From an uncultured virus (IMG/VR IMGVR_UViG_3300042197_001803) (Duplodnaviria > Heunggongvirae > Uroviricota > Caudoviricetes): a stretch of DNA of 64,000 bases. The stretch lies in the IMG/VR virus record IMGVR_UViG_3300042197_001803, positions 31,858-95,857 of that record; one strand, 5' to 3'. Of this stretch, positions 7,411 to 50,400 are shown piece by piece; within the stretch, counting starts at the first letter, position 1; each line of letters starts with the position of its first letter. The position numbers were made by a program, and so were the translations under genes. Under the pieces are notes generated by a model, which saw nothing but the letters and a program-made list of their open reading frames with translations, ran no database searches and was not told where the DNA came from.

Positions 7411-7581
7411 ATGGGCGGATGCGGATGCAAAAACAAATCAAATAACACTCAACAAAGTGTATCATCACAACAACCAAGTCAAAATCAAACCTTGTCTCAA
7501 GTTCAAGCTCAACAAACACAGAACGCTTCGATTCAAGAATCAATTCGTAAGGTTGTTGAAAAGTATTACAATAAAAAATAA
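7411..7581 (+). CDS. Small Gln-rich protein with MGGCGCK N-terminus (56 aa, not in track)
   Basis: Manual translation MGGCGCKNKSNNTQQSVSSQQ...IRKVVEKYYNKK; A-rich leader; terminator downstream. Confidence 0.7.
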   Translation: MGGCGCKNKSNNTQQSVSSQQPSQNQTLSQVQAQQTQNASIQESIRKVVEKYYNKK

Positions 7582-26449: not shown

Positions 26450-26457
26450 ATATTTAA

Positions 26458-27012
26458 TTAAATTGTTTTTGAGTATTTTTCTAAAATTTGTTTTTCGATA
26501 TCGGTTAGCGAAGATAAGCCTTTTTCTGATATTTTATCTAAAATATCATCAATAGTTGGTTCTTTTTTCTTAGTTTTTAAATTTGTTAATTCAAAATCAT
26601 CATCAACCTCATCTTCCTCGTTCAACAACTTAATAAACTCAAATTCGCTAATTCTATCGTCAACATCGTTTATCGATTCTTGTGCCTCAATCTTAAGACC
26701 TGACATAGTTTCACTATTATCAATATCAAATAGATGTTCGTAAATACCTTTAGTCAAACTTACTGACAATTTGTCATGGTTATAAGGTACCAAAACATGG
26801 ACAATATTTGAACCTGAAAATATAATACCTAAAAACTCTTTAATGTCATCAAACGTTTCGACAGAGCTAAATGTGAATATTGCCGACGATTGTCCGTAAT
26901 AAAATTTTATATTTTTAGAGTTAGCTATAACCGAGACTTCATTAGCAACACTTTCAATAAATTTATCTTGTTCTTTGTGTTCCCCAAAAAGGAACATAAT
27001 GTAATCACTCAT
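26458..27012 (-). CDS. Hypothetical protein with C-terminal IDDILDKISEKG.SSLT..EK..L motif
   Basis: The C-terminal motif resembles DUF6576-like tails found in Bacteroidota proteins. Confidence 0.55.
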   Translation of the reverse strand: MSDYIMFLFGEHKEQDKFIESVANEVSVIANSKNIKFYYGQSSAIFTFSSVETFDDIKEFLGIIFSGSNIVHVLVPYNHDKLSVSLTKGIYEHLFDIDNSETMSGLKIEAQESINDVDDRISEFEFIKLLNEEDEVDDDFELTNLKTKKKEPTIDDILDKISEKGLSSLTDIEKQILEKYSKTI

Positions 27013-27033
27013 ACTGTTTAAGTTATTGTCTTA

Positions 27034-27065
27034 CAAAATTACATCAAAATTATTGAATAACCAAA
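27034..27065 (-). promoter_or_regulatory. Bacteroidota-type sigma-A promoter driving 27012 gene and sigma factor
   Basis: Minus strand TTTG (27065-27062), 20-nt spacer, TAATTTTG (27041-27034). Confidence 0.7.
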
Positions 27066-29435
27066 TTATTGAGAGACAAAACTAATATTGTCTTCTTTTC
27101 TAATTTTAATAATGTTATCCGCCCAATTATTAACCAATGGATTGTGGGTGATTACAAATATCTTTTCAAAATATTCTTTTATTTTGCTAAAGAATTCAGA
27201 AACCATGTCAAGATTATCATTAGATATCTTACCAAAAACTTCATCGAATACAACTATATTTGGTTTAGGTAATGAACATATTTTACTTAATACCGCTCTT
27301 AAAGCTAAAGAAGCTATAGTTCTTTCATATCCTGAACCTGATGACATTAACTTTTCTATCTGAGTGTTGTTATCAATCATAATAAATTCAACCTCATTTT
27401 TATCGTTAATTCTAATTTCAAGTCTGAAGTGAGAACTGTCCTCAAGAAGTCTTTGTAATTCAGAATTAATTAATGGCATCATTGTTTTCATAATCATTTT
27501 TGAAATCCCATTTTTACCAAAAATTTCTAAATATATTTTAAATATTTTTTCTTTTTCCGCCTCTTCTTCTATCTTAATAATTGTTTCTTTATTTTCTTTA
27601 ATTTTGGTAGTTAAAGTTTTTATTTGATATTCAAGATTATCAATGTTTCTTTGAGTCTGTGTTTTTTCCCTATCAAGTTCATCTAATCTTAAACCAGCTT
27701 TAATTATTAGACCGTCTGTTTTGTTGTTTTCAGCAATCTTATCCTGAACTTCATTATACCTATCTAATTTAAGATTTAAAGCTTGAATTTTAAGATTGAT
27801 ACTTTCAATACTTACTTCATACTTTTCTTTGATAAGTTTGTTTTTCTCGTACTCATCGAATTCTTTCTTAAGTTTTACGAAACCTTGTTCTTTGCTGTTT
27901 AAATCCTGCATTAACTTAGTTTTTTGGTCTTTATGCACGATAAACCCATCAAGTTCGGCTATTTTAGAGTTAGTTATTGCCGCGTTCATTAACTCAATAC
28001 CACAATGTTCACATTTGATTCCACCCTCAACAGAAGACTTTAAAGTATTGATATCGGATATTTGCGTATCAATACGTATCAAATCTTTATAAACCTCAGC
28101 AACTTCTTCTTTAACCAAATCATGTTCATCTTCGTGATAATAAGATGAAGGTTCAATAACTTTAACATCTTGTAATTGTTTTTCAACTTTAACCCTATCG
28201 TTTATAAAGTTATTAATTTCTTCTTGAACTTTGTTAGGTGAAATTAAACTAATGTCTTTATCAATGGTATGTTTACTTTTTAATAAATTATCTCGGTATT
28301 CATTACCTATTGTTATTTTACCTAATATTTCTTTTAAAGATTCTTTTGAATTATCTATGTCAATATTATATTCACCAATTTTAATTGCGTATTCTTCATT
28401 ATCTGTTTTTAATTTTTCACTACTATAAACATTAGATAACATTGATTTAGAAAATTGACTATATATTTCCTTTGCAACATCTTCTTTTCTTTTAAGAAAA
28501 TCTAAACCCATAAATCGTGATAATACCTGACCTCTAGCGGTTGGTTTAGAATCTATTAGTTCTTCTAAGTTAGTTGCGGTTGTTAAAATTGTCATTAAAA
28601 AATCGTCTTTTGAGCCAATTGAAGTTTTAATGAACGCTTCTGTTTCTCTCCTTTGTTCACCAGTAAAATTTTGTAAACTACCATCTGATAGTTTTTTAAA
28701 AAAATCTAATTCGGTTTTAACATTCCAATCACCTGATTTAGATTTTTTTCTCTCAATATTTCGGATAATTATATATTCATCCCCATCGATAATAATTTCA
28801 CCTTTAACATGAACTTTATCTCGATTGGTAAACCTATTAAATACTTCTTCAGCTTTACTTGTTTTAGTGGTTTCATTAAAGAAAAGAAATAATAATAAAT
28901 CAACGGTTAATACAGTTTTACCACCAAAATTAGGCGGATTAGATTCAACAACATTAATACCATTACACTTATCAAAATCTAATTTTTGGTTCTCACCGTA
29001 GGATAAGAAATTTGAAAACTCTATATTTTTAATATACCATCTCTTAAACGGTGCCACATCGCTACTAGTTGCCGCCAATTGATTATCAACTACCGAATTT
29101 AATTCAACTATTTTATCGGTTAAACTTTCATCGTACTTAGTCTTAAGGTAAGTTTTAATTAAATCAAGTTGGTAATTTTCATCAAGAATGTTAAATGAGA
29201 TGTCAACATTATTTTCAACCTCTTCAGTAATTTTAGTTTTGGTAATAACATTAACATTATTAGTTACATACTTTTTTTGAAAGTAGTGTCTTACGCTTTT
29301 TATTTTTTCTTGTGTAAAATTTTCAGCATAATCTTCCCATATTACCTGAATATAGGGATTATCTAAATTTTCGATATTAATATCTTTTATCATTATTTTA
29401 TAATTAAATTCTACATGTGGATTAAATAAATCCAT
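27066..29435 (-). CDS. sbcC: SbcC/Rad50 (gp46-like) SMC ATPase
   Basis: NFLSYG, Walker A GGKT, CEHCG zinc hook, SGYE signature, VVFDEVF Walker B, ITHN. Confidence 0.92.
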   Translation of the reverse strand: MDLFNPHVEFNYKIMIKDINIENLDNPYIQVIWEDYAENFTQEKIKSVRHYFQKKYVTNNVNVITKTKITEEVENNVDISFNILDENYQLDLIKTYLKTKYDESLTDKIVELNSVVDNQLAATSSDVAPFKRWYIKNIEFSNFLSYGENQKLDFDKCNGINVVESNPPNFGGKTVLTVDLLLFLFFNETTKTSKAEEVFNRFTNRDKVHVKGEIIIDGDEYIIIRNIERKKSKSGDWNVKTELDFFKKLSDGSLQNFTGEQRRETEAFIKTSIGSKDDFLMTILTTATNLEELIDSKPTARGQVLSRFMGLDFLKRKEDVAKEIYSQFSKSMLSNVYSSEKLKTDNEEYAIKIGEYNIDIDNSKESLKEILGKITIGNEYRDNLLKSKHTIDKDISLISPNKVQEEINNFINDRVKVEKQLQDVKVIEPSSYYHEDEHDLVKEEVAEVYKDLIRIDTQISDINTLKSSVEGGIKCEHCGIELMNAAITNSKIAELDGFIVHKDQKTKLMQDLNSKEQGFVKLKKEFDEYEKNKLIKEKYEVSIESINLKIQALNLKLDRYNEVQDKIAENNKTDGLIIKAGLRLDELDREKTQTQRNIDNLEYQIKTLTTKIKENKETIIKIEEEAEKEKIFKIYLEIFGKNGISKMIMKTMMPLINSELQRLLEDSSHFRLEIRINDKNEVEFIMIDNNTQIEKLMSSGSGYERTIASLALRAVLSKICSLPKPNIVVFDEVFGKISNDNLDMVSEFFSKIKEYFEKIFVITHNPLVNNWADNIIKIRKEDNISFVSQ

Positions 29436-34086: not shown

Positions 34087-34992
34087 TTAAAATTTCATTT
34101 CGTAATAATATTCTTTAATATCACCTTTTAAATCACAAACATCCTTATCTATAGGTAGCTTAACAATTTTAACCTTACCATAAAGTTCACCACCACTTAT
34201 TTCTTCATATAACCTTACAGCATCACCCCAAGCATCACCATCAAGACAAATTGTTATATTACCCTTAGCTTTATTATATAATGAATTAAAAAGTAGTTCA
34301 CTCATATGTTTACCCAGCATGGGAATACTGTTTTCCAAAAAAAATCCATCAAACACACCTTCAACCAAATATATATCTTTATCCCAATCTATTAAATTTT
34401 CATTGAAAATTATTTTATCTTTTTCAGCTTGTGGGTTTTTATATTTTGCTTTAGTGTTTGGGTCCCAGCTTCTTGCTATATAATAATTTAATTCACCTTT
34501 TGTATTATATGATGGTACAACTACTCTACCTTTGTGTGAACCTCTATCACAAAAACCAATTTGATATTTTTCAATCATATAATCGGTAATTCCACGATTA
34601 TATAAGTAATTTATTGCCTGTCTTCTTACAGGGTAAATCTTACTCGAATCTTTGAATAGAGTGAATGACTCAGGTAATTTTAATTTTGGTAGTTTTTTTT
34701 CAGTAGGCTTATCGTTTTCAGGTTGTAAAATTTTATAAACTTTTTTTTGTTTTTTATTACCAAACTTATCAAAAAATTTATTTAGAGAACCTTTTGTGTT
34801 ATTAACATCACCACAACTCCAACATTTAAAGACGTGATTATGGTAGTTAATTTCTAAATTACCTTTGTCTCTATCTTCATCACAGACGGGGCAGTTAAAG
34901 GCAACCTGACCTTTGGACTCGTAGTGTTGCTTCTCGTCCCCAAGAATTTCTCTCAGTAATTCTAAAAGTATTTCTTTATCATCAGTCATCAT
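34087..34992 (-). CDS. DNA primase (Zn-binding + TOPRIM)
   Basis: CPVC...CWSC; KYKNP; LVEGVFD; LDGDA. Confidence 0.9.
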   Translation of the reverse strand: MMTDDKEILLELLREILGDEKQHYESKGQVAFNCPVCDEDRDKGNLEINYHNHVFKCWSCGDVNNTKGSLNKFFDKFGNKKQKKVYKILQPENDKPTEKKLPKLKLPESFTLFKDSSKIYPVRRQAINYLYNRGITDYMIEKYQIGFCDRGSHKGRVVVPSYNTKGELNYYIARSWDPNTKAKYKNPQAEKDKIIFNENLIDWDKDIYLVEGVFDGFFLENSIPMLGKHMSELLFNSLYNKAKGNITICLDGDAWGDAVRLYEEISGGELYGKVKIVKLPIDKDVCDLKGDIKEYYYEMKF

Positions 34993-35077
34993 TAAAATAT
35001 AGTCATAATTATTATCTTAATCAACCTTCACAAGTTTTTCATTAGTATTATATTTATTTAAGTAGAATAGTAGAATA

Positions 35078-35293
35078 ATGCCAATTGACATAACAATAAA
35101 CAATATTTCAGGAGCTTCACCATACGATGTTTATCTTTGTGATAACCCAGTTAGTGTTTGTGTTTATATAGACACAGTTTCATCACTACCTTATGTTTTT
35201 CAAGTTCCGTCTCTTATGTCAAATGATAACGATTTTAATTTAAAAATTGTAGATAATAATGGGTGCACTACCTATCAATATTTAAGTATCTAA
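35078..35293 (+). CDS. Single small beta-sandwich (SprB-like) structural protein
   Basis: [10 protein letters not shown]...[15 protein letters not shown] upstream. Confidence 0.6.
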
Positions 35294-37908
35294 TGCAGGT
35301 AACAACAATCATAAGAATAATCTCTTGTACTGACTTAACAGTATACTATGCGTATTATAGTGACCCGTTGATACTGTTACCAGGTAAAATCTATAATTTT
35401 AGTTTTACAATGGGTTCAACAATCCCTGATGGATGTTACACTTACGTACAAGATGAAATGCCTGGAGTACCTATAACAGGAACTGTATTATCAGTTAATG
35501 GTGGTCCTTACGCAAATTGTGAGGAATGTTTTATTGCACCTCCAACCCCAAGTCAAACACCAACTCCAACAGTAACTCCAACTAATACTGTAACACCTAC
35601 TAGTACTCCAACTCCAACAGTAACTCCAACTAATACTGTAACACCTACTAGTACTCCAACTAATACTGTAACACCTACTAGTACTCCAACTCCAACAGTA
35701 ACTCCAACTAATACTGTAACACCTACCAACACTCCAACACCCACACCAACACCATGCGGTTGCGAATGTATGACAATTGATTCAACATTATCATTTTTCG
35801 CCACAGGTAATACTAGTAATCCAAATAATGTAGCATATTACGAATATTATGATTGTAATAGTAATTTAGTCACTATTGTAGACAATAATATAGGGTATTT
35901 TAATATATGTGTTAGTAATTGCAATTTAGTTAAAGCGTATTTTTGGAGATTAGACGTTTATTACGAATCCACCTCTTTCCCATGGAATCCATTTACAGGT
36001 CCTGGTATAAATGCTGTTTGTAATGGAACCCCATGTTGTAATCAAAGTGATTGTGGTGCACCACCACCAACTTTACCTCCAACACCCACACCAACGACAA
36101 CACCTACACCAACCATAACATCTACACCAACACCAACGGTTACTCCTACGGTTACCCAAACGGTTACCCCAACAAAAACGCCCACTCAAACACCGACAGT
36201 AACTCCAACCATAACACCAACCTCAACTGTCACTCCAACAGTTACACCTACCGTAACACCAACAAGAACCCCAACTAATACCCCTTCAATAACACCAACA
36301 AACACACCAACAAAAACTGTAACACCTACTGTTACTCCAACAACAACACCAACACCAACACCAACACCTGTTGGTTGTTTTGAAAATTATTGTATAACGG
36401 GGACTGGTGATTCAGGTATTGACGACAATTATACTAGTGGTGGAACATATAATGGAGCTTTGTATTGGGTTGGTAGTGTAAATGGGTTATACATTTATTA
36501 TGATACAACTAATAGTCAATGGTGTTTATCAGCATCTTTAGGTGGTTCATGTATTTTATCAGGTAAATCACCTTGTGTTTCAACATGTCCTGATTTATGT
36601 CAAGATTATTTTTTCATAGGTATTTGTCCAACTCCAACTCCAACACCAACATTACCTTGTGATGTTAATTTTGAAGTGTTGTTTGATTGTGAATTTACAC
36701 CGACCCCTTCAATTAGCCAAACACCTACAGTTACACCAACAGTTACCGTAACCCCAACACCTTCAAATGTTTGTTCAGTTATTGGTGTCGACGCAACAAT
36801 TAATTCATATACACCAACTCCAAGCCCAACACCTAGTTTGACACCATCAAACACGCCAGCGGTTGTTAGACCTTGTAATTTTACAGGTAATGTTAGTTTT
36901 AATAATGTTAATGAAATTATTAGATGTCCATTTAGTAAACAATTCCAAGATTGTTTTAATGGTGAAATGTATTTTACAACAAATGAAATTAATAACCCAG
37001 GTGGTGGAAGTGTTGAACAATTTATGGTTTTTGAAGCTTTGGTTGATGGGTCATCAAGATGTGTTTCCTATATAGGAGATAATCAAGACACAATAGGTAT
37101 AAATCAAGTAGAGCTAAGGTATGGTCCTTTTGGATATTCTAATTTGGGCGACTGTATTAATTGTAGTCAGTTTGAAAGTCCAACCCCTACACCAACTTCA
37201 ACGGTAACCCCAACACCAACATTAACTCCAACACCAAGTAACACGCCAGTGGAAAACGCTTATTATGTTTATGTAAGATGTGACGATGAAAGAAAATATG
37301 TTGTTCAGACATCACCAGGTCCAACAACAAATATTAACACATCATTTATAAGTTTAGTCGATAATAAATGTTGGAAATTCTTGTATGTTTCATCAGGGTT
37401 CCCATCTATTAATCCTCTATATGATGTAATTAATTACACAGGTAATTATTTCACGCAAACAACTAACCAATCATTTAAAACTTGTGAATTATGTAATGCG
37501 GCTTTAATCGCGTCCACAACCACAACAACTTCAACGACTACACTATCACAACAAAATTATATAATAAACTATAGTGTTACAAAAACTGTGGATTGTTCTA
37601 CAACAATTGGTAGAATATTGGTAAATGGAGTTATTAAATACAGTATTACAACAGGATTAGCACCTGGTAATTATTCAGGTAATTTTACAGTAAAAGACAA
37701 TGATGTTGTTATTTTTGATTTCTCAACTATAGCACCGTCGCCATCATGTACAGGATTAATTCCTACTATATCAATATCGGACACTAAAGGAATAGTTAAT
37801 GAGTATGCAGAATACGGATTACCTAATCAAACAATATATGAAACATTTGTTGTAGATTATAATTGGATTGGTAATACAATACAAATATTGTCCAGTACCA
37901 CCACATAA
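35293..37908 (+). CDS. Cys-rich virion-type protein with multiple (Pro-Thr)n tracts
   Basis: Probable start at TAATG 35293; Cys-bracketed domains separated by PTPT tracts. Confidence 0.75.
35555..35752 (+). repeat. Coding tandem repeats ([14 protein letters not shown])
   Basis: Near-identical units ccaacagtaactccaactaatactgtaacacctactagtact. Confidence 0.8.
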
Positions 37909-37938
37909 AAAAAATATCGTGTATAAACACGATATTTT
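37907..37938. terminator. Bidirectional terminator between convergent genes
   Basis: AAAATATCGTGT-ataa-ACACGATATTTT. Confidence 0.7.
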
Positions 37939-37962
37939 AAACAATCATATAAATAAACGATA

Positions 37963-38562
37963 TTACCAAATACCTTCTTGTTTCATGTGTCCTAAAACAC
38001 AACAATAAGCATCTGTTTGGTCAAAATTCTCTTTTTTAAGTGTATTATTTTTGGTGTAAGACCACTGTATTTGAGGTTCTCTTTTTGCAACTAATTCCCA
38101 AATTATCATTTTTTTATCACAATCTTTAGGATAGTTACCAAACAATACATACTTACCTTTATTATTAGGTTGAACCAAGTGAGGGAATGCGTTTTTTCTT
38201 GAGTTGTAAGTTGAAATAAATTCGGGAACAATACCTAAAATTCTGTAAATCTTTTCAGTAATAAGTGTGTTATATCTTAACAAAGTTTGAATTGTGTAAA
38301 TGTTATTACTATTTAGTAAAGGTTCTTCAATTATAACTTTTGTTATACCCAAATCTTTATATTCATTTAGTTTAGTTTGAAATATATCACTTTTTAAAAG
38401 AAGTTCTTTTATTTTATTTTCTTCTTTTGGTTTTGGAACAGGGGATACATGGGTCAATTCTAATAATTCTTTTGTTTTAATATCAAAAAGTGCCCATCCA
38501 ATTGTTTTTGTTGAGATGTCTAATCCCAATACTTTAGGACTTTCTTTTGAAATTTTTTTCAT
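37963..38562 (-). CDS. RuvC-like Holliday junction resolvase
   Basis: VLGLDIST..IGWA, VIIEEP and D..DAY acidic motifs. Confidence 0.82.
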   Translation of the reverse strand: MKKISKESPKVLGLDISTKTIGWALFDIKTKELLELTHVSPVPKPKEENKIKELLLKSDIFQTKLNEYKDLGITKVIIEEPLLNSNNIYTIQTLLRYNTLITEKIYRILGIVPEFISTYNSRKNAFPHLVQPNNKGKYVLFGNYPKDCDKKMIIWELVAKREPQIQWSYTKNNTLKKENFDQTDAYCCVLGHMKQEGIW

Positions 38563-38639
38563 ATTTTTTTGCGTTACCTAATAATTAAATTAATCTATTT
38601 TAATATATTGTAAATATATCTCAGATTTTAAGTGATTAT

Positions 38640-41162
38640 TTAGAAATCAAACTTAATTAGGAATTGTTGAATTCCTTGTCTTAAAACTGGTGATTGTAGT
38701 TTTGAAATAACCATCAAATCTTTATCTGAATCGTATAAACCAACTTCAGTAATGTAAGATTTAGTTCCTTGTGTCCATGTAGGGTTTGAAGTTGATAAGA
38801 ACTCGGCTTGACCCAAATTAATCTTATACCTCATTTCATATATGGTGGCCTGTATATCAGTTTCTAATGAACCGTAAAAATAATATTCATCACCAAAGTT
38901 TAATTGGGTACCACTAAAACCTGCCTGAGTAATATCAATATAATCACTTAAATCATAGTTAGACGCATTATCGTACAACTCTTGAGTAATAACAAACGTA
39001 CTACCAGTTAAACCGCTTTGAGTTATATATCCATTTACCGTTGAAGCGGTTAACTGACTTGTGAAATCAATTATTTTCCACTCTTCAGGGTCAGGTCTTG
39101 TATCACCAGAAACTTTTTGACAAATAATCTCAAATTTATTGGCAAAAAATCCACTACCTAAATCACAAAAAGTAGGACAAATAGTTGTCGTTGTGGTCGT
39201 GGTACCTATTGTAGTTGTTGTGGTCGTGGTACCTATTGTAGTTGTTGTGGTTGTGGTTGGGGAATCCGCTGGTTGTGATAAACAAGCAAATTCAGGACCA
39301 AACCTTACTCCAACATTTTGTGATGTGATTGGTTGGCAATCAATATTAGGACCTTGTATCTTTTGATAGTAGTTACAATGTAAAGAATCTGTATAATCTA
39401 AAGTATTGGTAAATCTATAAGTAACATACAAATATTCTGTATTACCTGTTAATATACCAACAAAAGATTCACCTTCAGTATTACAAGTATTTGGTGTAAC
39501 TAATGTTAATTTAGGTGCTGGTAATGTCCAATTTCTATTTGATTTATATGACATCGCTGCGATAATTTCCTCATCGTCAATAACAATAATTTGTTGGTCA
39601 GGAAATACTTTACCGACTCTACTTGGGAATCCATCATCGTTTGGGTTATCATCCCATAAGTGGTAATATCTTAAACCTGGAGTATTCATATCAACATTTT
39701 TAGTTGACTCAATATATTCAACTTTGAATAAACCAAAATCTTCAAACCCTGGCGGGTCAACCCAAAATGTTTGTCCATAACAACAATCAGGATTTTTATG
39801 CCACATAATCCAAGGTATGTGTAATCTGAAGTTTCTTGCTTGTCCTATGGCATTCGGGTTTGTGTCATCAAATGGTTGTAATGCGAATTTTTCACCATAG
39901 AAGAAATCAATTGTTTGATTAGTATAATGAATAATAGCAATGGCTTTTTGGTCTTTAGGTTCTAATCTAACTCTTTCATCAAATGAATTATAATAAAAAA
40001 CAGAACTAGTATCTGTTTGACCGCTTGATGATGCGTAACCTAAATACTCTTTAGTGCCCAAATAATTTATTGAACCGAATTCAGTGTAGTTCTTATGTGT
40101 GTTGGAGAATATACCAGCTGGTGTTTCAGACCAAGGAATATTCATATTCCATATTTTAACATCAAAAGCATCTGTATTACATACTGATTCAAAATTAATA
40201 ACATCATCATTCCAATGTCTTGATGGTGTTATTGAATCGTAAAGTGATGTCATGTTTGGTGGGTATATTAATGTCCTTGCATAACATTTATTGGAGTATG
40301 TTGAGAAATCAGGTGTTGCTCTATCTAAAGTATATTCGTCTAAACATATTCCAACAATCTTGTATGTTAAAATGTGATAACAACTATTAATAGAAACTAA
40401 ACAATCAGGTGGTGGAGGAGGTGGGCACGCTCTACTTGGTGTTGGTGTTGGGCAAAAAGTCGCTGACGGGGTGGGAGTAGGTGTTGGTGATGCACATGGG
40501 TTTCCATTAGTTGCTGATGGTGTTGGGGTAGGTGTTGGTGAAGTGTTAATTGTTGGTGTCACCGATGGTGTGGGTGTAGGTGTTAGTGGTATTGGGTATT
40601 CACAATTACAGTTGTTTTTACCATTACCGTCATAATAAATTGTAATTATATCCCCAACGGCAGGTAATCTAACTATGTCCGTATTACATCCTGAATATAC
40701 CAATTTTATTGTAGTACCACCTGTTACTGTGGACATATCAACAATGTAGTTAGAGTTTATAACATAAAAATTATTAGTTAAAGCACTCCAATTTATAGTT
40801 GTTGCCGTAGTATCACCAGTGAAAAACCCTCTCATTACAGGTCTATTATATACAGGACTAACAACAGAATCCATATAAGGTATTCCATAAGTGTTACCTG
40901 TAATACCATCAACATAATATGGGTATTTTACATGTTGTTTATTTGATTCAGGAACACCACTAATGTTTTGGGCGTTAAACCCAGGCTCAAGTACATTACT
41001 ATTTGTTTGGTTGTATGTTGATGGTAAGGCGTTATACGAAACTTCACTATCACCAACTTGGAAATACGAAATATTAAATCTTCCTTGTGATAGTTTTTGT
41101 CTACCAGCGTCAGTTAATCTTGTGTTGACTAAACCAGAAGTATTTTTTAAAATAAAACCCAT
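38640..41162 (-). CDS. Tail fibre/baseplate protein with split tail-collar (P2 gpH/DUF3751-like) domain and PT/T tracts
   Basis: N-terminal LTDAGRQKL and C-terminal ITEVGLYD...LMVISKL; internal PTPT and TTTTTTTIG repeats. Confidence 0.65.
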   Translation of the reverse strand: MGFILKNTSGLVNTRLTDAGRQKLSQGRFNISYFQVGDSEVSYNALPSTYNQTNSNVLEPGFNAQNISGVPESNKQHVKYPYYVDGITGNTYGIPYMDSVVSPVYNRPVMRGFFTGDTTATTINWSALTNNFYVINSNYIVDMSTVTGGTTIKLVYSGCNTDIVRLPAVGDIITIYYDGNGKNNCNCEYPIPLTPTPTPSVTPTINTSPTPTPTPSATNGNPCASPTPTPTPSATFCPTPTPSRACPPPPPPDCLVSINSCYHILTYKIVGICLDEYTLDRATPDFSTYSNKCYARTLIYPPNMTSLYDSITPSRHWNDDVINFESVCNTDAFDVKIWNMNIPWSETPAGIFSNTHKNYTEFGSINYLGTKEYLGYASSSGQTDTSSVFYYNSFDERVRLEPKDQKAIAIIHYTNQTIDFFYGEKFALQPFDDTNPNAIGQARNFRLHIPWIMWHKNPDCCYGQTFWVDPPGFEDFGLFKVEYIESTKNVDMNTPGLRYYHLWDDNPNDDGFPSRVGKVFPDQQIIVIDDEEIIAAMSYKSNRNWTLPAPKLTLVTPNTCNTEGESFVGILTGNTEYLYVTYRFTNTLDYTDSLHCNYYQKIQGPNIDCQPITSQNVGVRFGPEFACLSQPADSPTTTTTTTIGTTTTTTTIGTTTTTTTICPTFCDLGSGFFANKFEIICQKVSGDTRPDPEEWKIIDFTSQLTASTVNGYITQSGLTGSTFVITQELYDNASNYDLSDYIDITQAGFSGTQLNFGDEYYFYGSLETDIQATIYEMRYKINLGQAEFLSTSNPTWTQGTKSYITEVGLYDSDKDLMVISKLQSPVLRQGIQQFLIKFDF

Positions 41163-41188
41163 GTTTATAAATATAACATTTTAAATTT

Positions 41189-42499
41189 TTATGTTGTTAT
41201 TCCACCAGTACTATAACCCCCAACGCTTCCTGATGAACCTTCATTTATGTTTATTATTTCAACATTACAACAAGAACAACCATTTATAGAAGCTGTTGTA
41301 ATACTATAAGTATCCAAACTTTCACCAACAAGACATTTCAATAAAGTTTTAGATACTGTTGTTGTTGTGTTTAATACGACAACATCACCACTGTTTATAG
41401 TTACTGAATTCCAAATATCATTGGTTGTCTTTTTATACACTATAGTATCTTGACAACCTGGTATTGTATTTTGAGAAATTGATACCCCTACAGAGCTCAA
41501 AGGAGGTGATTGAGGAATACCATTAATTGTTAAAACTGTATTTGTTGTAAGTGTTGATGTTGTTGGTGATGGTGCAGAACTAAATAAATTAGAATGATTT
41601 AATTTAAGATTTAAAGAAACCCCACTTGGTAACGGTGGTGTTACATTAACAGTTGCCGTCACTTGATTTGTCTTTAGAGTTGGGGTATTACTAATTGTTG
41701 TCACTACAGGTGTAATACTAACACTATAAGTCACAGGTTGTTGACTATTTGTTAACACAACAGAACTATAAAAAGTATTTGAATTGCTATCAGTTAATAC
41801 AAGTGTGTAAGTACCACTACATAGATTATTGAATATTGCTGATGAAGATTGACTAACTCCATTATCTATCGAATATTGATACGGTGGCGTACCACCATAT
41901 GGTTGGAACACTATACTTCCGTCACACTCACAGGTAGGTCTGTTTGTTATAACTGAAAAACCTAAAGGATTTGTTGTTAGACAATTACCTTCATTACTTA
42001 TTAGGTTACCAGCTCCACCGCCAACGGTATACCAACCTGTTAAAGGAGGGTACGATGAATTTGAGACTATTTGATATGGTAGGGTTCCTCCACTTACTCT
42101 CCATTTATTTAATGATGTGTCAAAAATTATTAAATAATTTGTGTCATCAGATATCCACGATTCATAACCATTGTAAAGACCATTAGGGTTAAAATGTAAA
42201 GCAAAATCACCATCAATTACAATACAAAAATCGTAAGTTTGTACTGGATTTTCAACAGGAAAACTTTGATTTATTTTACATAATTCATTATATAAATAAA
42301 GTACTGTTGTTTCATCAGGTACTGTAACATAATAACCTGAAGTTAGTTCACTTAATGTAACACCGCTAGCAGGTGTGTAGTACAAATATTTTAAGGCAAT
42401 ATTGTTATTATTTATTGTATTATAATAAATTGTATAAGGACCTGGGGATGTTCCTCCTGTTATAGTAACTAAATAATTTTGACTCATTCTGTAATACAA
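41189..42499 (-). CDS. SprB-repeat-containing structural protein
   Basis: PTC..DGSI....[13 protein letters not shown]...[17 protein letters not shown]; the true start may be the M at 42487. Confidence 0.7.
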
Positions 42500-43500
42500 T
42501 TAGAACTTCCAAGGTTTATGATTTCAACATAATCAGGTGCACTAACACTGCCTTCACAAGCACATAATGATAAATAATACCCTGTGAATACATAGGATTC
42601 TACAGGATAATTAGGTCCCAAACAATATCTATAATATATTGTTGGTGTTGTTGTTAGGTAATCAGGATTTCTAAATTCATATCTAACACAATCACAAGGA
42701 CCAACAAAAGTGCTTGGTGTTGGGGTTGGTGTTGGTGTTTTTGTTGGTGTTACAGTTTTTGTTGGTGTTGGTGTTGGTGTAGGACTACTATTAGGGGTTT
42801 TAGTTGGTGTAGGTGTGGGTGTTGGTGTGTTAGAAACATTAGGTGTAATAGTAGGTGTTGGCGTAATCGTAGGTGTGGGTGTATTAGTCGGTGTTGCAGT
42901 TGGGCTTGGTTCTGTGACAAAATTTTGAACTGATGCACTGAATGAACAATCATATTCTGAAGTTAACTCACAAGTTGTGGTGGCGCTAAAGTCACCATAA
43001 TAATCAATTACCGTAGCACTATAGGTACCAACAGTTAAGTTTTGAATCGCAGGTGCTATATTACCATTACTCCAAATAACAGTGTATGGTGGAGTTCCGC
43101 CAGTAATCGATACCGACATTTCACCATCGGCTGACGTTGGTGAAGATGGATTTGAAATTACACATTCAATCTCCATTGGAAAAATTGTTATTACATTACA
43201 CTCATTAACTGGTTGTGGTTGAATGGGTAATGGTGTAGGAGTTGGTTCTTCGCAGGGATTTTCAAGTAAACACGCGTAACAATCAGAACCGTAGTATAAC
43301 GTTTCAACTACATCACTATATATTGGGGAATCATTAGGAACTAACCCTTCATAATAAACACCACATATTGTTTGTGTTTCGGTTATTACTTTATATGTTA
43401 CACCAACAATAAATGGTTCTACAGGTATAAACTCAATACCAAAGTAGTTATCCTTATCATTTGGATATTCACAACAAGTCCTAAAATATAAAAATCCCAT
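42484..43500 (-). CDS. Cys-rich, SprB-repeat, (Pro-Thr)n protein
   Basis: [13 protein letters not shown]...[15 protein letters not shown] tract of about 65 aa. Confidence 0.7.
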
Positions 43501-43532
43501 TTATGTTTAGATTATAAATATAAATAATCGTT

Positions 43533-44498
43533 TTATTGTTTTTTGATTATTTCTTTCATAAGTTCTACGTATTTTTTTGTAGCACTATTGTTGTCCACAT
43601 AATCAAAGTAATTAATATTTTCTTTTAGTTTTTCTAACGGGTTAACATTTATGAAATCACCTTTAAAAAATTTTGTGTTTTTTAAGTCTGCGGTTACACC
43701 TGCCATATGTAATATTGGTCTCTTTTCATAAATTTTGATATCATCGGTTGCCCAAGAAAAATCAAGTTCTTTTGTTATTTTAGTTTCTTTATCAAAATAC
43801 CATAAGTTCCATAATAAAGACCACATTTCTGCAGTCCAAAATTGTATCTCACCAGGATTAATTGGGAATCTTCTCTGATAATCCAACATTTGATTATATA
43901 ATGGAGTACAATCCATATATATCTTTTCCCAAATCATCCAATCTGTTTTTTTAATAATGTATTGACCGCCACCAGAATTATCTTGGTTACATTCAACACA
44001 TTGGGGGTCAATACCTACCACATCACACATTTCTTGTAACAATTGTCCTTTACCTGAATTTGGGTGAGTTTTTTCATATCTTTCACAACAATCCATAATA
44101 TAGTTGTAACCTATATATCCAATAGTGTCGGACAAATAAATAACATCATCTTTAAGTAGTGATTTAAAATTTGGTAGTTCTCTAAAAATTATATCAGAAT
44201 CATGTAAGAAAAAACAATCACCGTGTTCAGGAAACTCTCTAAGCCATTTATAAATTAAAAATGGTTTTATACTTGGTATATATTTTTTATCTTCTCTATC
44301 ATCTAAATAATGATGAATATTAATACCTAAATCTTTTAAAGATAAAGATTCTTTAGTTGGTTCCGTATTTGGTGTTACTATACCTAATAAAACATGTATA
44401 TCTTTTGGATTTATACCTTTTTGTATAAAATTTTCAACATAAACTCTAATTTGCCAATGAAAATAAGGTACGTCAGGTTGTGATGTAACAAACAACAT
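43533..44498 (-). CDS. GT-A glycosyltransferase resembling plant peptidyl-Ser galactosyl/Hyp arabinosyltransferases (GT96/GT95)
   Basis: YFHWQ, YIPSIKP...KWL, HDSDIIFR (DxD), WTAEMWS, ILH motifs in the expected order. Confidence 0.65.
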   Translation of the reverse strand: MLFVTSQPDVPYFHWQIRVYVENFIQKGINPKDIHVLLGIVTPNTEPTKESLSLKDLGINIHHYLDDREDKKYIPSIKPFLIYKWLREFPEHGDCFFLHDSDIIFRELPNFKSLLKDDVIYLSDTIGYIGYNYIMDCCERYEKTHPNSGKGQLLQEMCDVVGIDPQCVECNQDNSGGGQYIIKKTDWMIWEKIYMDCTPLYNQMLDYQRRFPINPGEIQFWTAEMWSLLWNLWYFDKETKITKELDFSWATDDIKIYEKRPILHMAGVTADLKNTKFFKGDFINVNPLEKLKENINYFDYVDNNSATKKYVELMKEIIKKQ

Positions 44499-44568
44499 AT
44501 TTTTTTATTATTAAATATAGTTCATGTTATTTTGTAATAAATGATATTTCAGGAGATATTTATATAAT

Positions 44569-44748
44569 ATGAAATTACTCAAAACAATAACTAAATTAGT
44601 TTTAGAATCTAAGGATGCTTTGGATAGAGCCGCTGAGCGAGGTGTTAGTGAAAAAGAATTGGATAGGTTGGAAAAAAACTACATTGATTCATTAAAATTG
44701 ATGAAATTGTATGAGAATATTGGGAAATCTAATCCTGATAAAAATTAA
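44569..44748 (+). CDS. Small helical protein (59 aa, not in track)
   Basis: [69 protein letters not shown] 4 nt upstream. Confidence 0.65.
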
Positions 44749-47432
44749 CATCCGCCACCAATTGGTGAGCACTCTATCCCTAATACCCCACTTCCACTGA
44801 TATTAAATACTTGATTCACCCCACCTTGTTTCAAGAAACCACCCCAAAGGAATAAACCTGTCAATGAGTCATTAATATATATTGTAACACCATTTGTTAA
44901 CGATGTTACACCATATGTTGTGTATACTGTTATTGTTGAACCTGTGACATCACAAAGACCACCAACACAATATGATGAATTCCAAATAACTGTATGAGCT
45001 CTGTATAACGGACTTGGTGTTGGGGTTCTTGTTGGTGTAACAGTAGGTGTTGTGGTAGGTGTAATAGTAGGTGTTACTGTAGGAGTCGTGGTTGGTGTTG
45101 GGCTAGCAAATTGTGTTGGTGTAGGAGTTGTGGTTGGTGTAGGACTTGCAAACATTGTTGGTGTAACTGTAGGTGTGGCCGTTGGTGTTGGTGAAGGTGT
45201 TTTAGTTGGTGTTAATCCTGGTGTTACTGTTGGTGTTGGTGTTACATTTGGTGTTCTAGTTACTGTAGGTGTTGGTGTTGGTGAAGGAGGTACATCACAA
45301 GCAACACAAGAAATATTGTAAAATATTACCATATCAATCAAAACTTGCTTGTCAGATAATGTCACATTAGGGTCACAATTACTTAAAATTTTAATTATGT
45401 TATTTTCAGGGTCTATTATAACATTTCCAATACCACTTTCAGTTTCTAAAACTTCTTCTATTGTATCATACCACAAATTGTCGGATGGATAATCATTTAA
45501 TGTCGTACCTGTATAAAAATTCTTTGATGCTATAGTAGTACCCAAAGTAATTTTAACTTGGAATACAGCACTATTTAATACACAATTAACATCATCAATA
45601 GTAAGGTCATAGAAACCTTCATTTAACATTTCTCTAGGACCTTTTTTAATTTGGATTCCGCTATTTGTAAAATTAGTATCACAAATAGAATATGTTTGGT
45701 AAGACGTAATTAAGTTAGTACCTTCAATAACAACTGATTTTTGTTTAGTACATCCCAAACTATCTGTTACGGTTAATGTGTAGGTACCTGCGGATAAGTT
45801 ATTAACAGTTAAACCAGTTTGACCATTAACGTTACTACTCCAAACCAAATTAAACTGAGGCTCTCCATCAGTAATAAACGCAGTTATCGAGCCATCATTT
45901 CCATTTGTAGTATTAATACCTGCTAAAATAAAATCAACATTTGTTGATGGGTCAACAAAATATGATGTAGTGATTGTACATCCCGTTCCATCGGTAACTG
46001 TAACTACATTATTTCCTGACGCTAAATTAGTGAACGTATATCCACTATCACTTGTTGGTCCGAATACAGATGCGTTAGCAATAAATGTGTATGGTGGAGT
46101 ACCACCTGAAATACCCAATTCAAGAGACCCATTTGAAAGTCCGCAAGTAGTACCAGTAGTACTACCTGTTAAATTCATAGTAGATAGATTATTAATTGTG
46201 TATGCACTTGTAAACGTACAAACACCGTCTTCAATAGTTAAATTATACGTACCAGCCGATAGATTGGTAAACTGCCAAGTCTGACTTGTGGTTGCTTGAG
46301 ATACACTACTACCATCAGGATATTCTAATGTGTATGTGTAGTTGCCTGACCCACCAAATATTGATATAGGGTTTAATGAACCACCATTATTACCACATAA
46401 AGTAGGATTAACACTAACACTTGTTATTGAAAATCCACCAGGTGGTAATACAGAAGTTGTTGTAGTGAATGTACATAAACCCGCATCAGTTACCTGTATT
46501 GTAAACACGCCAGGTGCTAAATTAGTAAACTCATATGTCGGTTCAAACGTTATTTGAATTGTTCCGTTAGAACCTGAATAATAATATGGTGCAGTACCTC
46601 CAGTTACTGTTATTTCAACCCTTCCGTTTGAAGTAAAACAGTCAGGGTTTGTTGTAACTAAAGAACCTAATCCGATTGGTGGTACATTTGGAACTGATGT
46701 TGATTTTGTTACCGCACATCCTGTTGAGTCTGTAACGGTAACGCTATATCCACTTGCGGTTAAACCTGTTATACTTGATGTGGTTTCTCCGTTATTCCAC
46801 AAATATGTGTATGGTGGGTTACCTGTAATACCAGTTACGAATATTTTACCCGAATCTACTGAACAGCCCGCGTCTGCAACAACATAAAAACCAAAATCAA
46901 CGGTAGTTGAGCTTTTTACTATACATGTTTGAGTTTTACCTGTACACCCACCCCCATCATCAACAACAATATAGTAAGTATCGGCAGTTAAAAACCCATC
47001 AAAAGTTATTGTACCGTCAAATGAACTACCAGATGTTATAAAAAGATTGTCATCATTATATAAACTAAATGTTGCGGTACCATAATAGTTTGTTGTTGAT
47101 GCTGACAAACTACCGTTATTTAAACCGCAAGTTGTATTACCAATTGCGGTTATTGAAGCGCAAGTTCCGCTAGAGATATAAATATTAACAGGTAATATGG
47201 TATTAGTTGGTGTACAACTATCAATAATATTAATGGTATATGTGTCGGCAGATAAACCTGATATTGAGTATTGTGTTACTCCAACACCTAAAGCTGTGGT
47301 TCCTGATGCGGGATTAACCCATTGAATACTATAATCAGGCGCACTGCCTAAGATGTCTATGGTAAACGCTCCTGAGTTTGTATTACTACAGTCGCCAGTT
47401 ATTGAAATATTATATCCTAAAACACAAGACAT
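44745..47432 (-). CDS. Long SprB-repeat adhesin-like fibre with C-terminal (Pro-Thr)n tract
   Basis: About seven repeats such as [38 protein letters not shown] tract of about 95 aa. Confidence 0.8.
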
Positions 47433-50400
47433 TAACTACATGTAATATTAAAGTTTATTCCGACATTTAAATTAAAATTTAATCCTACATCGGAAACCGA
47501 ACATATTAAATTATAAATAACCACAGTATCATTATTTGTAAAATAATAATCATATCCGTAGTTTTTTAAATCGTTAAGTGCGGCAATTAAGGCGTTGTCC
47601 CAATCTGATATTGATGGTGAACTCAAAGATGAATCTATGTAACCAACACCATTAAAAAATGAATAACTAACAATATCGTTATTATTTATTTTTATATCAA
47701 CAAACCACTCAGTATTTAAAGTATTAAGTTGACAATCGTTTAATTGATATCCGTTATCAACCAAATAATTATTTAAAACATAACCCAAAACACCATTAAA
47801 ATTAATAATTGTTCCACTGTTATACCAAGGGTACTTACCACATTCAACAACTTGTATATCACAGTCATATCTAAAAATATTTGTAGTTAATTCACATGGT
47901 TTACAAGGAATAGGTACTAATTGACAACCCTCCTGTCTTCTCCAAACAAATTTTTGTCTATGAAATATTGAGTTTTCGTACCTAACACCAGTATTCCAAA
48001 TTGTTGTTGCTGGTATCATCTGTTCAACCAACCTAATCCAATAATCACCCAATCCTTCAACATACTCAATCATTGTTTTATAGTTAAAGTTATTATTTTC
48101 AATACCAGCCTGTTGTTGTGATTCCAAATATTTCCAATATATCGAAGCTAATGTTGGGTATCCACCTGTTTTACCATCAGTGGCAAATTGTCTATTTCTT
48201 ACGTTAATTGTATTTAACCAAAATGTTTGAGCGAACTCAAAAAATGTATTCCTTTTTGGTTGTGGGTTTATCGTAGTCCAATCAATACCACCTCTTTGAG
48301 GGTACAAATACACTGGATTTGGGTCACAATAAGTAGGTGCAACATATCCCAAACCTTGGTTAGGTATTGGATAATTAAATTGTCTTGACATGTACCATAC
48401 GTCATATGCAAGTCCTTGTCCAGGATTTAAAAATAAATCAACGTTTTTAACATTTAACACTAGTCTTTCATCACTAACATTGTATCTAGCATTAATATTA
48501 GCATCCAAATTAGACCTTAACCCAACTTCATAATCAGCCCAACTTTTGTTATTATCAATTGTTGGTGTTAAATAATAACCTAAATTCATAAAAGGAAATT
48601 TCCTAAATTTATTTAAGTATACTTGACCGTAAGAATAAGGTTGTAATTTAGTTTGATAGTTAGGATTTGACCCCGTAAAAACACTATTTGTTAAGTCAAC
48701 TTCTTCAGGTGCTCGGTGTTGTGGTGTTTGTTCAAACCAACCACTACCTATTTGAAAATAATATGCTTCACTGTCTTCAATAGCTCTAGGATAACCTTCC
48801 TCATCCATTGGGTATTCATCTATTGTTATGTTCGCGTCTTGTATTATTGTTTGAGTTGTAAATCCTGTATACGGATTACCAAATATAAAGAAAATATTAC
48901 CATCTTCTAAAGTTGGTAATTCCTGAACATATGTACCACCAGATATTGTGACAAACTGAGTGTTAAATTGGTTAAGATTTATTCTTTGGTCGGCTAAGTA
49001 AACATACTCATTAAACTCAACTAAGGCCTCAGGAGCCCCAATAAGCCTCATAAGTATTTCTATAGATTTTCTAGTACCTTTTGATTTAAAAAGATATGCT
49101 GAGTTTAATATTAAGTTTCTATAATACTGATAGTTTAATTCATCAGGAGTACTAGATTTAGATAATCCTGAATAAAGTGATGGTTCACTATTTTTTTGAC
49201 CAAAAACCGAACTTAAAAAAGCGTCATTAGTTATTGGAGAAATATTTGTGGTCCACCCTAATGTTTGGGCTAAGTTTTTAAGTAATTGGGAAGGTATGTC
49301 ATTACCAACATTATAATTCACCGAATTCATATAAGCCAAAGCGTCTATGAATTTTTTTGTTTCATCAAAACTTCTACCGTATATCTGTAAAACTTTTTCC
49401 ATTTTTTGAGTTACAGTATCAAACTCTCTGAACGCATCGGTTATAAAAAATCTAGACACTAAATTTGTTGTAAACTCATCAAAAAATGCACTTGTTTCGT
49501 TCAAACTTTCTAAATAATTTTCAAATGCTTTAGATACAATATCTAAATTCCAACTACCATCTAAACTCCATGTAATATTTTCATACCCTGTATAATATTG
49601 ACCATTTTCTGTTTGTCTGGGTACTTGAAAAGTTGCTGTATATATTGGGGAGGTTTCTCTATTTAATAAAAAGTTTTCTACTTCATCTAAATCTTCATTA
49701 AAAATTCTGTTCACCTCAAAATCATTTGGTCTGATAACTAAATTATCATAAGTGAAATTTTGACCTGAAAATGGGTTGCCTTCAACAACAATAGTTAAAG
49801 TACCAAATTCTATGTTTTGAGTTGGGGTTATTCTTAAAACCGAATACCCCGCACCACTGTAATACAAAGAATATTTACTGTAATTATTTGTCATGTCTCT
49901 CAATGGAGATACTCCTATTTCTCGTAGTTCTAAATTTCTTGCGGAGTTAACTGAGAAATCAACGTCAAATGGATTCCTTAACTTTGAGACATCTAAATCG
50001 AAACTAGTTTCGTTAAATATTGAATTGTATACTATATTTGTCGCGGTTACCCCTGTTACATAGTTTATACCCATAAAGGTTGATTCTATGGCTGCAGGAA
50101 ACTTACTAATAATTGTTTGAACTGATGTTGAGAGTCTTTTAACCATTGACCCATATAGAGTAAAATTGGTAATTTGACTTAGGTCAAAATTAGGATATAC
50201 TTTAAAATTATTTTCAAAAATCGCCTTTGATTGAGCAACACTTTCAACACCCATAGACTCTAAACTAATCGGGTCTGAGAAGGTACCAGTATTAAAATTT
50301 CTATTAGTCTTTTCTGTTACACCTGTAGTAAATTGGAAATTACCTTGCGTTAATCCACCTCCAGCAACTAACTGAAATCCAACTAAATTGTCGGAAAATG

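Follow-up and report, generated by a model that had tools for sequence, protein, structure and literature searches.

We describe here a 321-amino acid (aa) protein encoded within a 64,000-nt stretch of DNA (hereafter, the window) of the uncultured Caudoviricetes record IMGVR_UViG_3300042197_001803, and we propose, with a probability of roughly 65%, that it is a phage-encoded peptidyl-threonine O-glycosyltransferase decorating poly-threonine (poly-Thr) runs of the phage's own structural proteins. This proposal, derived from sequence comparison, draws on four properties of the enzyme family: its predicted fold, a conserved DxD...H signature, the position of its gene in the virion module, and its joint gain and loss with poly-Thr runs. 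An initial annotation of the locus had pictured a plant-like (GT95/GT96-like) transferase glycosylating the (Pro-Thr)n linkers of the phage fibres. The comparative data retain that part of the picture in which the phage modifies its own structural proteins, whereas the Pro-Thr linkers do not hold up as the substrate.

According to the proposed mechanism, a cytoplasmic, metal-dependent GT-A enzyme would take a nucleotide sugar and O-glycosylate threonines in poly-Thr runs of phage structural proteins before or during assembly, the outcome being a mucin-like sugar coat on the particle. The runs themselves would be the acceptor, the sugar would be attached through an O-Thr linkage, the enzyme would initiate rather than extend the glycan, and the acceptor proteins would be carried in the virion.

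A predicted GT-A glycosyltransferase of the phrog_4417 family

The open reading frame (ORF) of the enzyme (43533-44498, minus strand) contains the motifs listed in the initial annotation in the same order, namely YFHWQ (starting at residue 12), YIPSIKP (73), IYKWL (82), HDSDIIFR (99, including D100-S-D102), WTAEMWS (221) and ILH (262). The highest 19-residue Kyte-Doolittle mean of the protein is 0.65, and therefore it has no segment resembling a membrane span; the ORF, the motif positions and the hydropathy all agree with the earlier description of a soluble protein devoid of transmembrane segments. Over residues 1-317 the protein matches the phage family phrog_4417 (positions 1-291 of the 293 in the profile, E 1.9e-72), to which no function is assigned. 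This family comprises 823 cluster representatives at E≤0.001. A word-indexed search returned 1440 relatives (unnamed or "hypothetical" throughout among the 120 matches listed), and tblastn located relatives covering at least 80% of the query in 77 cultured-phage records. No Pfam family, the GT8, GT24 and GT6 models included, matches the 321-aa protein at E≤1.

In an alignment of 55 members (30-88% identity), residues W15, Y73, D102, M225, W226 and H264 are invariant, and D100, Q16 and W221 are retained in at least 90% of the sequences. The conservation of D100, D102 and H264 was seen again in 78 genome-encoded members (80 loci minus the partial L242 and minus L216, which nearly duplicates L215). 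The conservation of these residues across 55 members indicates that the motifs are more than chance. By analogy with GT8-type enzymes, D100, D102 and H264 are expected to bind a metal.

The AlphaFold 2 model of the protein, built from the 55-member alignment, has a predicted local distance difference test score (pLDDT) of 97.7 and a predicted template modelling score of 0.94. The Foldseek comparison of this model with PDB returned at least 363 chains at E≤0.001, with GT-A transferases throughout among the matches listed. The top matches (UGGT, WbbM, XXYLT1, glycogenin, LgtC, the ABO enzymes GTA/GTB, and LARGE1) are of the retaining GT8/GT24/GT6 type and align at E ~1e-6, with template modelling (TM) scores of 0.36-0.49 and 8-13% identity. 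GT8-type models were matched likewise in the viral structure library BFVD, and a sequence search of PDB with the enzyme gave chance matches only (best E 0.18). The GT8/GT24/GT6 enzymes glycogenin, LgtC, XXYLT1, UGGT and ABO have the fold and the DxD plus downstream His in common with the 321-aa protein, but at these TM scores, and with no match to the Pfam models of GT8, GT24 or GT6, this is a resemblance of fold and not family membership. Glycogenin, UGGT and XXYLT1 act on proteins or protein-linked glycans. Judging by the model, the 321-aa protein is a GT-A, DxD-type glycosyltransferase of its own family, with a fold nearest to the retaining GT8-like group. The glycosyltransferase claim of the initial annotation is upheld at the level of this class, the structure search having returned GT-A enzymes.

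Gene context and poly-Thr tails in cultured phages

The 77 cultured-phage records with a relative of the enzyme represent mostly siphophages of Gram-positive bacteria, along with one Chryseobacterium phage. Cultured carriers include Lactobacillus phage PLE3 (KU848186), Lacticaseibacillus phage R3.3 (OP807345), Lactococcus phage CHPC836 (MN689521) and Chryseobacterium phage MA9V-3 (PV245944). The enzyme gene is located inside the virion module in all 11 distinct cultured phages examined, both lytic and temperate, and directly follows the major capsid or major tail gene wherever these are annotated. Translation of the neighbouring genes revealed poly-Thr runs at each of these 11 loci. Capsid proteins, tail-tube proteins or both carry most of the runs, at a distance of 0-4 residues from the C-terminus. 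Small ORFs immediately preceding the enzyme gene carry others, and the Chryseobacterium phage has internal runs in two proteins encoded just upstream. The tags (as we refer to these segments) of the Bacillota phages are made of pure Thr with no Pro.

Two unusual arrangements were observed at such loci. In Staphylococcus phage SA2 (L088, 5649-5927) and Arcanobacterium phage TPWB06 (L089, 5660-5923) the 3' end of the major tail gene also encodes, in a different frame, part of a Thr-rich ORF, and the major tail protein itself ends in a Thr run. A programmed frameshift may lengthen the Thr tag on a fraction of the subunits. In Lactobacillus phage LpeD, orf68 (L086, 5584-5988), located just upstream of the enzyme gene, carries the GenBank annotation "glycoprotein; GP2_EHV1B", apparently based on nothing more than the similarity of the Thr-rich repeats of orf68 to a mucin-like protein of a herpesvirus.

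Co-variation of the enzyme and poly-Thr tails in small phages

The presence of the enzyme was scored by a profile built from the family alignment. Among 27 IMG/VR loci related to Enterococcus phage phiFL1A by their tail-tube protein, 12 have both the enzyme and poly-Thr, 15 have neither, and none has one without the other. At all 12 enzyme-bearing loci the tail-tube protein and the capsid protein alike have a poly-Thr tail. Ranked by identity to the query, these loci (at 96-100%, 83% and 66%) are intermingled with loci lacking the enzyme. Among 80 loci related to Lactococcus phage CHPC836 by their capsid protein, an intact enzyme is present in five, and each of the five has a poly-Thr tail. 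At two of the Lactococcus-type prophage loci (L108 and L122) there is a 55-aa remnant of the enzyme gene (7272-7436, 29.5 bits) and there are no tails: the capsid proteins terminate in ...NFTAGK and lack a Thr run, as if the enzyme and the tag had decayed jointly.

The state of the enzyme changes at least four times on each of the two trees (for the phiFL1A tail-tube and CHPC836 capsid sets), which were built minus the columns of the trait itself and, in the case of the capsid, minus two rows shorter than 380 aa. Independent contrasts are concordant in the two small-phage sets (3 of 3 and 2 of 2). Pooled over three protein families, 7-8 contrasts are concordant and none is discordant (sign test ~0.008-0.016).

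Pro/Thr tracts and pure Thr runs in the giant-phage lineage

The IMG/VR virus record from which the window comes is linear, 95.9 kb long and 33% complete by CheckV estimate. The window is its final 64 kb and has a GC content of about 30%. Near-complete relatives are 257-318 kb long, and the window is therefore part of a giant-phage genome. All of the 80 closest viral loci, at 59-79% identity, belong to one giant-phage lineage. An ORF with Pro/Thr tracts occurs within 10 kb of the enzyme gene in 76 of these 80 relatives and within 1.5 kb in 58; because this is a single lineage with conserved synteny, the 76 tract neighbours do not amount to independent evidence. Using a 1006-aa neighbour of the enzyme as bait, we collected 21 loci that have tracts and no enzyme within 10 kb. 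A whole-record search of 30 records located the enzyme in the five chosen as known carriers and in one more (G009), where its gene is farther than 10 kb from that of the 1006-aa protein.

The enzyme gene was not found in the whole records of three relatives that are 96-100% complete (G002, G004 and G015). These contain 10, 7 and 4 ORFs with Pro/Thr tracts (1075, 197 and 103 aa, respectively) and 1, 0 and 1 ORFs with a pure Thr/Ser run (at least 6 residues, at least 5 of them Thr). The corresponding numbers for the near-complete enzyme carriers G028 and G029 are 10 and 8 tract ORFs (394 and 288 aa) and five run ORFs in each, and this 96-kb fragment has five tract ORFs and three run ORFs. Pro/Thr-type tracts occur regardless of the enzyme, while pure Thr/Ser runs are nearly confined to enzyme carriers. 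Thus, the co-occurrence of the transferase with Pro-Thr tract genes that was expected from the initial annotation is real in terms of neighbourhood (76 of 80), but the tracts are equally common where there is no enzyme, and the abundance of tract ORFs in the three near-complete enzyme-free relatives speaks against (Pro-Thr)n linkers as its substrate.

The 840-aa protein encoded downstream of the enzyme (Table 1) offers the clearest single example, the distribution of its Thr runs largely following that of the enzyme. Counting locus rows including duplicate contigs, its orthologues have Thr runs in 73 of 78 cases beside the enzyme and in 1 of 18 where no enzyme was found, the lone exception being on a contig that is 9% complete. 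In terms of unique sequences, 48 have both the enzyme and the run, 11 have neither, 4 have the enzyme only and 1 the run only. On the tree of the 840-aa protein we count at least 5-6 changes of enzyme state; out of five independent contrasts ~2.6 are concordant and none is opposite, the rest showing no difference (p 0.25). The Thr runs of the 840-aa protein in the window are encoded by a mixture of codons (9 ACA, 6 ACC, 3 ACT and 3 ACG), which therefore favours selection on the protein, and not single-codon slippage.

The likeliest acceptors in this phage would be the three runs of seven threonines (T7) in the 840-aa protein (39183-39257), the best candidate acceptor in the window, and the Ser/Thr run of an 881-aa protein; the T7 run of a 261-aa protein might be a further one. 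The Pro-Thr linkers may be glycosylated too, in a manner not dependent on this enzyme.

The extensin analogy and kinship with plant GT95/GT96 enzymes

The location of the enzyme gene between Pro/Thr-tract genes, together with the tract frequencies among its close relatives given above, would fit an extensin-style system, in which a GT95/GT96-type enzyme acts on (Pro-Thr)n linkers, possibly after proline hydroxylation, and stiffens the fibre stalks. We consider such a system very unlikely. As mentioned, Pro/Thr tracts are equally frequent in near-complete relatives lacking the enzyme, and the tags of Bacillota phages are Pro-free.

The assignment to GT95/GT96 did not survive a comparison with PF23452, the Pfam model of hydroxyproline O-arabinosyltransferases (HPATs; cut-off 23.9 bits). 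It does not match the 321-aa protein at E≤1, and matches 0 of the 78 genome-encoded members at E≤0.01. At E≤10 it gave no match within the enzyme's own genome, in a search the controls of which were silent too. Among the 55 aligned members it touches a single one (E 0.38), in the company of 20 other noise-level families. No plant proteins are present among the 60 matches of a profile search for longer relatives. On the other side, the ESM Atlas language-model look-up assigned PF23452 to 18 of 30 named look-alike clusters (to 10% of the members in the best one), a hint that may serve as a lead to GT95 kinship. A distant common origin with HPAT is possible; membership in GT95/GT96 is not established.

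At the level of function, plant HPAT (GT95) and SGT1 (GT96) start O-glycans on repetitive structural proteins rich in hydroxy amino acids, as is proposed here for the phage enzyme. According to PMC8012813, HPATs are Golgi type II membrane proteins, and both HPAT and SGT1 are membrane-anchored Golgi enzymes acting on hydroxyproline or Ser. In contrast, the phage enzyme has no hydrophobic span that could serve as such an anchor (see the hydropathy peak above), is predicted to be a soluble protein of the cytoplasm, occurs together with Thr runs and has no match to PF23452. The extensin analogy needs hydroxyproline, and a prolyl 4-hydroxylase was therefore looked for; no 2-oxoglutarate/Fe(II) oxygenase (PF13640) was found in the 95.9-kb record, which covers about a third (~33%) of the genome.

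Fused and cellular branches of the family

Longer members of the family are fused to additional domains. An N-acetylglucosaminyltransferase (GlcNAc-T) domain, PF11397, is fused in 3 of 10 long representatives (and is present in 7 of the 78 genome-encoded members), and O-FucT, GT2 and F5/8-C domains occur as well. Out of 60 longer relatives, 32 (P0274-P0311, ~658-744 aa) are fused to radical S-adenosylmethionine (SAM) and SPASM domains, and nine have a further glycosyltransferase domain (GT1, GT2, GT6, GT11, PF04488 or PF11397). In the radical-SAM-fused viral branch poly-Thr is found at 10 of 12 enzyme loci vs none of eight with a radical-SAM homologue alone, the upstream ORFs of this branch having Thr runs of up to 28 residues. 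At loci L435-L440, on viral contigs of up to 299 kb, five of six fusion genes follow a Thr-run ORF.

In bacterial genomes, the short form of the enzyme, found mostly in prophage-like regions of Bacillota, is accompanied by same-strand poly-Thr at 33 of 44 loci. The long fused cellular form, hosted by Chitinophaga, Pedobacter, Mucilaginibacter, Sphingobacterium and metagenome-assembled genomes of Acidimicrobiia, has poly-Thr at 4 of 36 loci, those four being doubtful. For example, in Chitinophaga niastensis (L211, 3562-12578) the enzyme is of the long form, has a Glyco_transf_7C domain at its C-terminus and is encoded in a cluster with a radical-SAM enzyme, a LanC-like protein, a GT1 enzyme, an S41 peptidase and an outer-membrane barrel, with no Thr runs nearby. 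By its gene content this looks like a modification cluster of Bacteroidota for glycosylated peptides, similar to those of ribosomally synthesized and post-translationally modified peptides. Such a peptide-modification-like cluster is consistent with peptide acceptors for the family. Overall, peptides or proteins in general seem to be the targets of the phrog_4417-type family, and the link to poly-Thr seems to be a property of the phage branch rather than a universal one.

Other explanations and points against the proposed function

An enzyme of this fold might have a non-protein acceptor, either phage DNA (as the sugar of a hydroxymethylated base) or host teichoic acid, lipopolysaccharide (LPS) or capsule, with the poly-Thr runs being unrelated linkers. 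Modification of DNA or of host surface polymers is the commonest reported role of phage glycosyltransferases according to PMC12619734, LgtC and WbbM are among the structural neighbours of the enzyme, and the RmlB-like and RmlC-like enzymes of this phage (see below) could serve a polysaccharide. We nevertheless regard a non-protein acceptor as unlikely. In 11 of 11 cultured phages the gene belongs to a late structural operon, Thr runs in four unrelated protein families vary together with the enzyme, the 321-aa protein is soluble with no membrane anchor, and the fusion partners of the family include domains of the protein O-fucosyltransferase type and PF11397. As to DNA, the 95.9-kb record, about a third of the genome, yielded no thymidylate-synthase-type hydroxymethylase, the control of this search being positive in 10 of 14 genomes.

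Another explanation is linkage in the absence of function, that is, the enzyme gene and the Thr-rich segments would travel as one mobile cassette, their co-variation reflecting recombination history. The enzyme gene does abut a tagged gene at most loci, and the tree-aware tests, taken singly, leave room for such a history. We consider this the least likely of the alternatives. The tags are carried by two or three separate genes over 2-3 kb (capsid, a ~105-aa protein and tail tube), and in the giant phages the tag is an internal insert in the conserved 840-aa protein, encoded 1.4-2.1 kb away. In addition, the tags have disappeared from both genes at the two loci where the enzyme gene has decayed, and the pairing recurs in phages of Bacillota and Bacteroidota and in large uncultured phages on unrelated acceptor proteins.

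Several observations weigh against the proposed peptidyl-Thr O-glycosyltransferase, and are to be set beside the evidence above. The tree-aware tests are singly non-significant (p 0.25, 0.25 and 0.5), only the pooled direction being significant, and a co-transfer of the enzyme gene and the tags as one cassette, given that they are close together, would also produce co-variation. The pairing has exceptions on both sides: one of 73 CHPC836-type loci lacking the enzyme has poly-Thr (L136, T7), 4 of 52 unique 840-aa orthologues from enzyme contigs lack Thr runs, no same-strand poly-Thr is present at 11 of the 44 short-form bacterial loci, and there is none at 32 of the 36 loci of the long fused form. 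The calls of enzyme absence come partly from incomplete contigs, only G002, G004 and G015 being at least 96% complete. LPS and glycan transferases (LgtC, WbbM) are among the structural neighbours, and therefore the fold does not identify the acceptor. The Thr-run proteins of the window are only putative virion components, the 840-aa protein having neither a usable model nor annotated relatives. Finally, the evidence for the enzyme class and for virion protein glycosylation is strong but purely comparative.

Gene layout of the window

The features around the enzyme gene are listed in Table 1. All four Pro/Thr-tract genes reported around it in the initial annotation exist as ORFs, although one of them, ending at 37908, has its GTG start at 35263 in the ORF listing, and not at 35293. 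A filter for Ser/Thr/Pro tracts (12 or more S/T/P and 5 or more T per 14 aa), applied to all ORFs of at least 100 aa in the whole 64-kb window, was passed by these four ORFs only, all at 35.2-47.4 kb around the enzyme gene; the tracts are therefore clustered here and do not characterise the window at large.

Table 1. Genes and sites of the window discussed in the text
Feature	Coordinates	Strand	Description
Enzyme gene	43533-44498	-	ORF with ATG start, 321 aa
338-aa tract protein	42484-43500	-	One SprB-like repeat; Pro/Thr tracts at ~residues 197-265
436-aa SprB-like repeat protein	41189-42499	-	No tract; belongs to the run of the enzyme gene
840-aa protein	38640-41162	-	Pro/Thr linker at ~residues 200-250; three T7 runs
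Poly-Thr site of 840-aa protein	39183-39257	-	Residues 636-660, TTTTTTT-IG-TTTTTTT-IG-TTTTTTT
881-aa protein	35263-37908	+	Four long Pro/Thr tracts; one S/T run at 37513-37542
895-aa protein	44745-47432	-	SprB, Y_Y_Y, BiPBP_C and other Ig-like repeats; C-terminal Pro/Thr tracts at ~residues 715-809
261-aa protein	24504-25289	-	Hydrophobic N-terminal segments; four to five EVEKIVEVPVEVIK-type repeats; T7 run at 24540-24560
Baseplate wedge genes (gp6/J-like, gp25/W-like)	61202-63040, 63047-63505	-	phrog_219 (E 1.6e-21), phrog_261 (E 9.4e-19)
RuvC-like resolvase	37963-38562	-	One flank of the 881-aa tract gene
Primase	34087-34992	-	Other flank of the 881-aa tract gene
Sigma-factor-like protein	25649-26449	-	phrog_351 (E 2.1e-55); further upstream
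SbcC-like protein	27066-29435	-	Further upstream of the 881-aa tract gene

The baseplate wedge genes, whose best cultured relatives are those of Flavobacterium phages (25% identity), mark the start of a same-strand late gene run that ends at 38640. The 895-aa protein matches SprB (E 4e-15) and, weakly, the "virion structural protein" family phrog_26672 (E 2.6e-4), and is probably a fibre or decoration protein. No annotated relatives of the 840-aa, 881-aa and 1006-aa proteins were found in the Pfam, PHROG and cultured-phage searches: tblastn gave no cultured-phage relatives of the 1006-aa and 840-aa neighbours, and the 881-aa protein matched no Pfam family, its match to phrog_15511 being limited to the tract region. 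A fold prediction for the 840-aa protein from a 20-sequence alignment had a mean pLDDT of 44.9 and was unusable. The 261-aa protein, which matched no PHROG family, has its T7 run 14 residues before the C-terminus and is the third Thr-run ORF of the genome fragment. Among ten other window ORFs scanned against PHROG, only the sigma factor, the SbcC-like protein and two unknown families were identified.

The initial annotation had placed the tract genes in or next to a tail/baseplate module. The baseplate-wedge families and the SprB/Ig-like repeats of the 895-aa protein bear this out in part, but the 840-aa, 881-aa and 1006-aa proteins have no annotated relatives and the 881-aa gene is on the other strand. 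With RuvC-like, primase, sigma-factor-like and SbcC-like genes nearby, the tract genes therefore border the replication region instead of forming one unbroken structural block.

The enzyme gene may have a promoter of its own in the 246-nt non-coding gap (44499-44744) that precedes it, whereas a mere 32 nt separate it from the next gene downstream, that of the 338-aa protein. A consensus scan of 34900-47600 was uninformative (70 promoter-like sites vs 67.2 expected, and 8 terminator-like sites vs 6.3 expected). The ORFs encoding "GVGVGV..." at 35553-35804 (minus), 36606-36854 (minus) and 45052-45321 (plus) are opposite-strand mirror images of the Pro/Thr tracts and almost certainly not genes.

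Sugar supply

Genes of nucleoside diphosphate-sugar synthesis are present in this phage, upstream of the window. A RmlB-like dTDP-glucose 4,6-dehydratase (26432-27352, minus strand of G000:C1, L200; E 1.8e-95, below the equivalog cut-off) and a RmlC-like epimerase (25700-26203, minus strand of the same contig; E 2.4e-30) are encoded ~48 kb upstream of the enzyme gene. The presence of both genes suggests that the phage can make a 4-keto-6-deoxyhexose nucleotide. No GT2 domain was found in the genome fragment. At the small siphophage loci examined there are no annotated sugar genes, and therefore the enzyme probably uses a common host nucleotide sugar.

Relation to known glycosylation systems and implications

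Freeman and co-workers reportedly described virion glycosylation of the mycobacteriophages Che8, Corndog and Myrna (Cell Host Microbe, 2023). In the portions of the literature reached, glycosylated phage virions are documented only for mycobacteriophages, where phage-encoded glycosyltransferases modify capsid and tail-tube subunits at their C-termini and the sugars blunt antibody recognition. The modified C-termini of the Che8 type are the same place as the poly-Thr tails of Bacillota phages; however, glycosylation was measured in Che8 and is only inferred for the poly-Thr phages. The Che8 glycosyltransferases are also not homologous to the 321-aa family: gp108 combines GT2 with a methyltransferase, gp110 is a GT25 enzyme and gp109 has no Pfam family, their scores against the family profile being 0.4 (gp108), -3.0 (gp109) and -2.9 bits (gp110). 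Their genes are at the right end of the genome, outside the structural module, the C-terminal sequences of the Che8 capsid (...FNKTGS) and tail-tube (...EQYSDGS) proteins are free of Thr runs, and no Mycobacterium phages are present among the 77 tblastn-matched cultured-phage records. Since the enzymes, the gene position and the C-termini all differ, the two systems would represent the same kind of outcome reached via a different enzyme and acceptor.

A second comparison is with mucin-type O-glycosylation and the cytoplasmic polypeptide GlcNAc transferases (PF11397), in which low-complexity tracts receive the sugar directly on Thr/Ser. In our family PF11397 is a fusion partner and not the domain of the 321-aa enzyme, and the poly-Thr process would run in the bacterial cytoplasm under phage control. 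A full-text literature search, with most subscription journals and supplements outside its scope, returned no description of the enzyme family, of phage poly-Thr tails or of a link between GT95 and phages.

The enzyme family is spread over phages of lactic acid bacteria, enterococci, staphylococci, clostridia and Bacteroidota, as well as aquatic giant phages. This points to an enzyme family that is different from, and much more widespread than, the mycobacteriophage enzymes, and that has a simple, recognisable acceptor tag. In a broader picture, which we favour at little better than even odds, one cytoplasmic enzyme and an encoded poly-Thr tag would make up a widespread modular "glyco-tag" system coating capsids, tail tubes and fibres with mucin-like O-glycans in phages of Bacillota and Bacteroidota and in uncultured giants, while bacteria would have recruited the same family into radical-SAM/LanC-like peptide-modification clusters. 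If true, virion glycosylation would be common among phages and no mycobacteriophage curiosity, and the tag and enzyme would provide a minimal pair for O-glycoprotein production in bacteria and for glyco-engineering. If the tags are glycosylated, this would explain a common unannotated "moron" in structural operons and provide an annotation rule, by which an enzyme gene together with poly-Thr tails predicts a glycosylated virion; it would also bear on how immune systems, mucus and proteases meet therapeutic and dairy phages.

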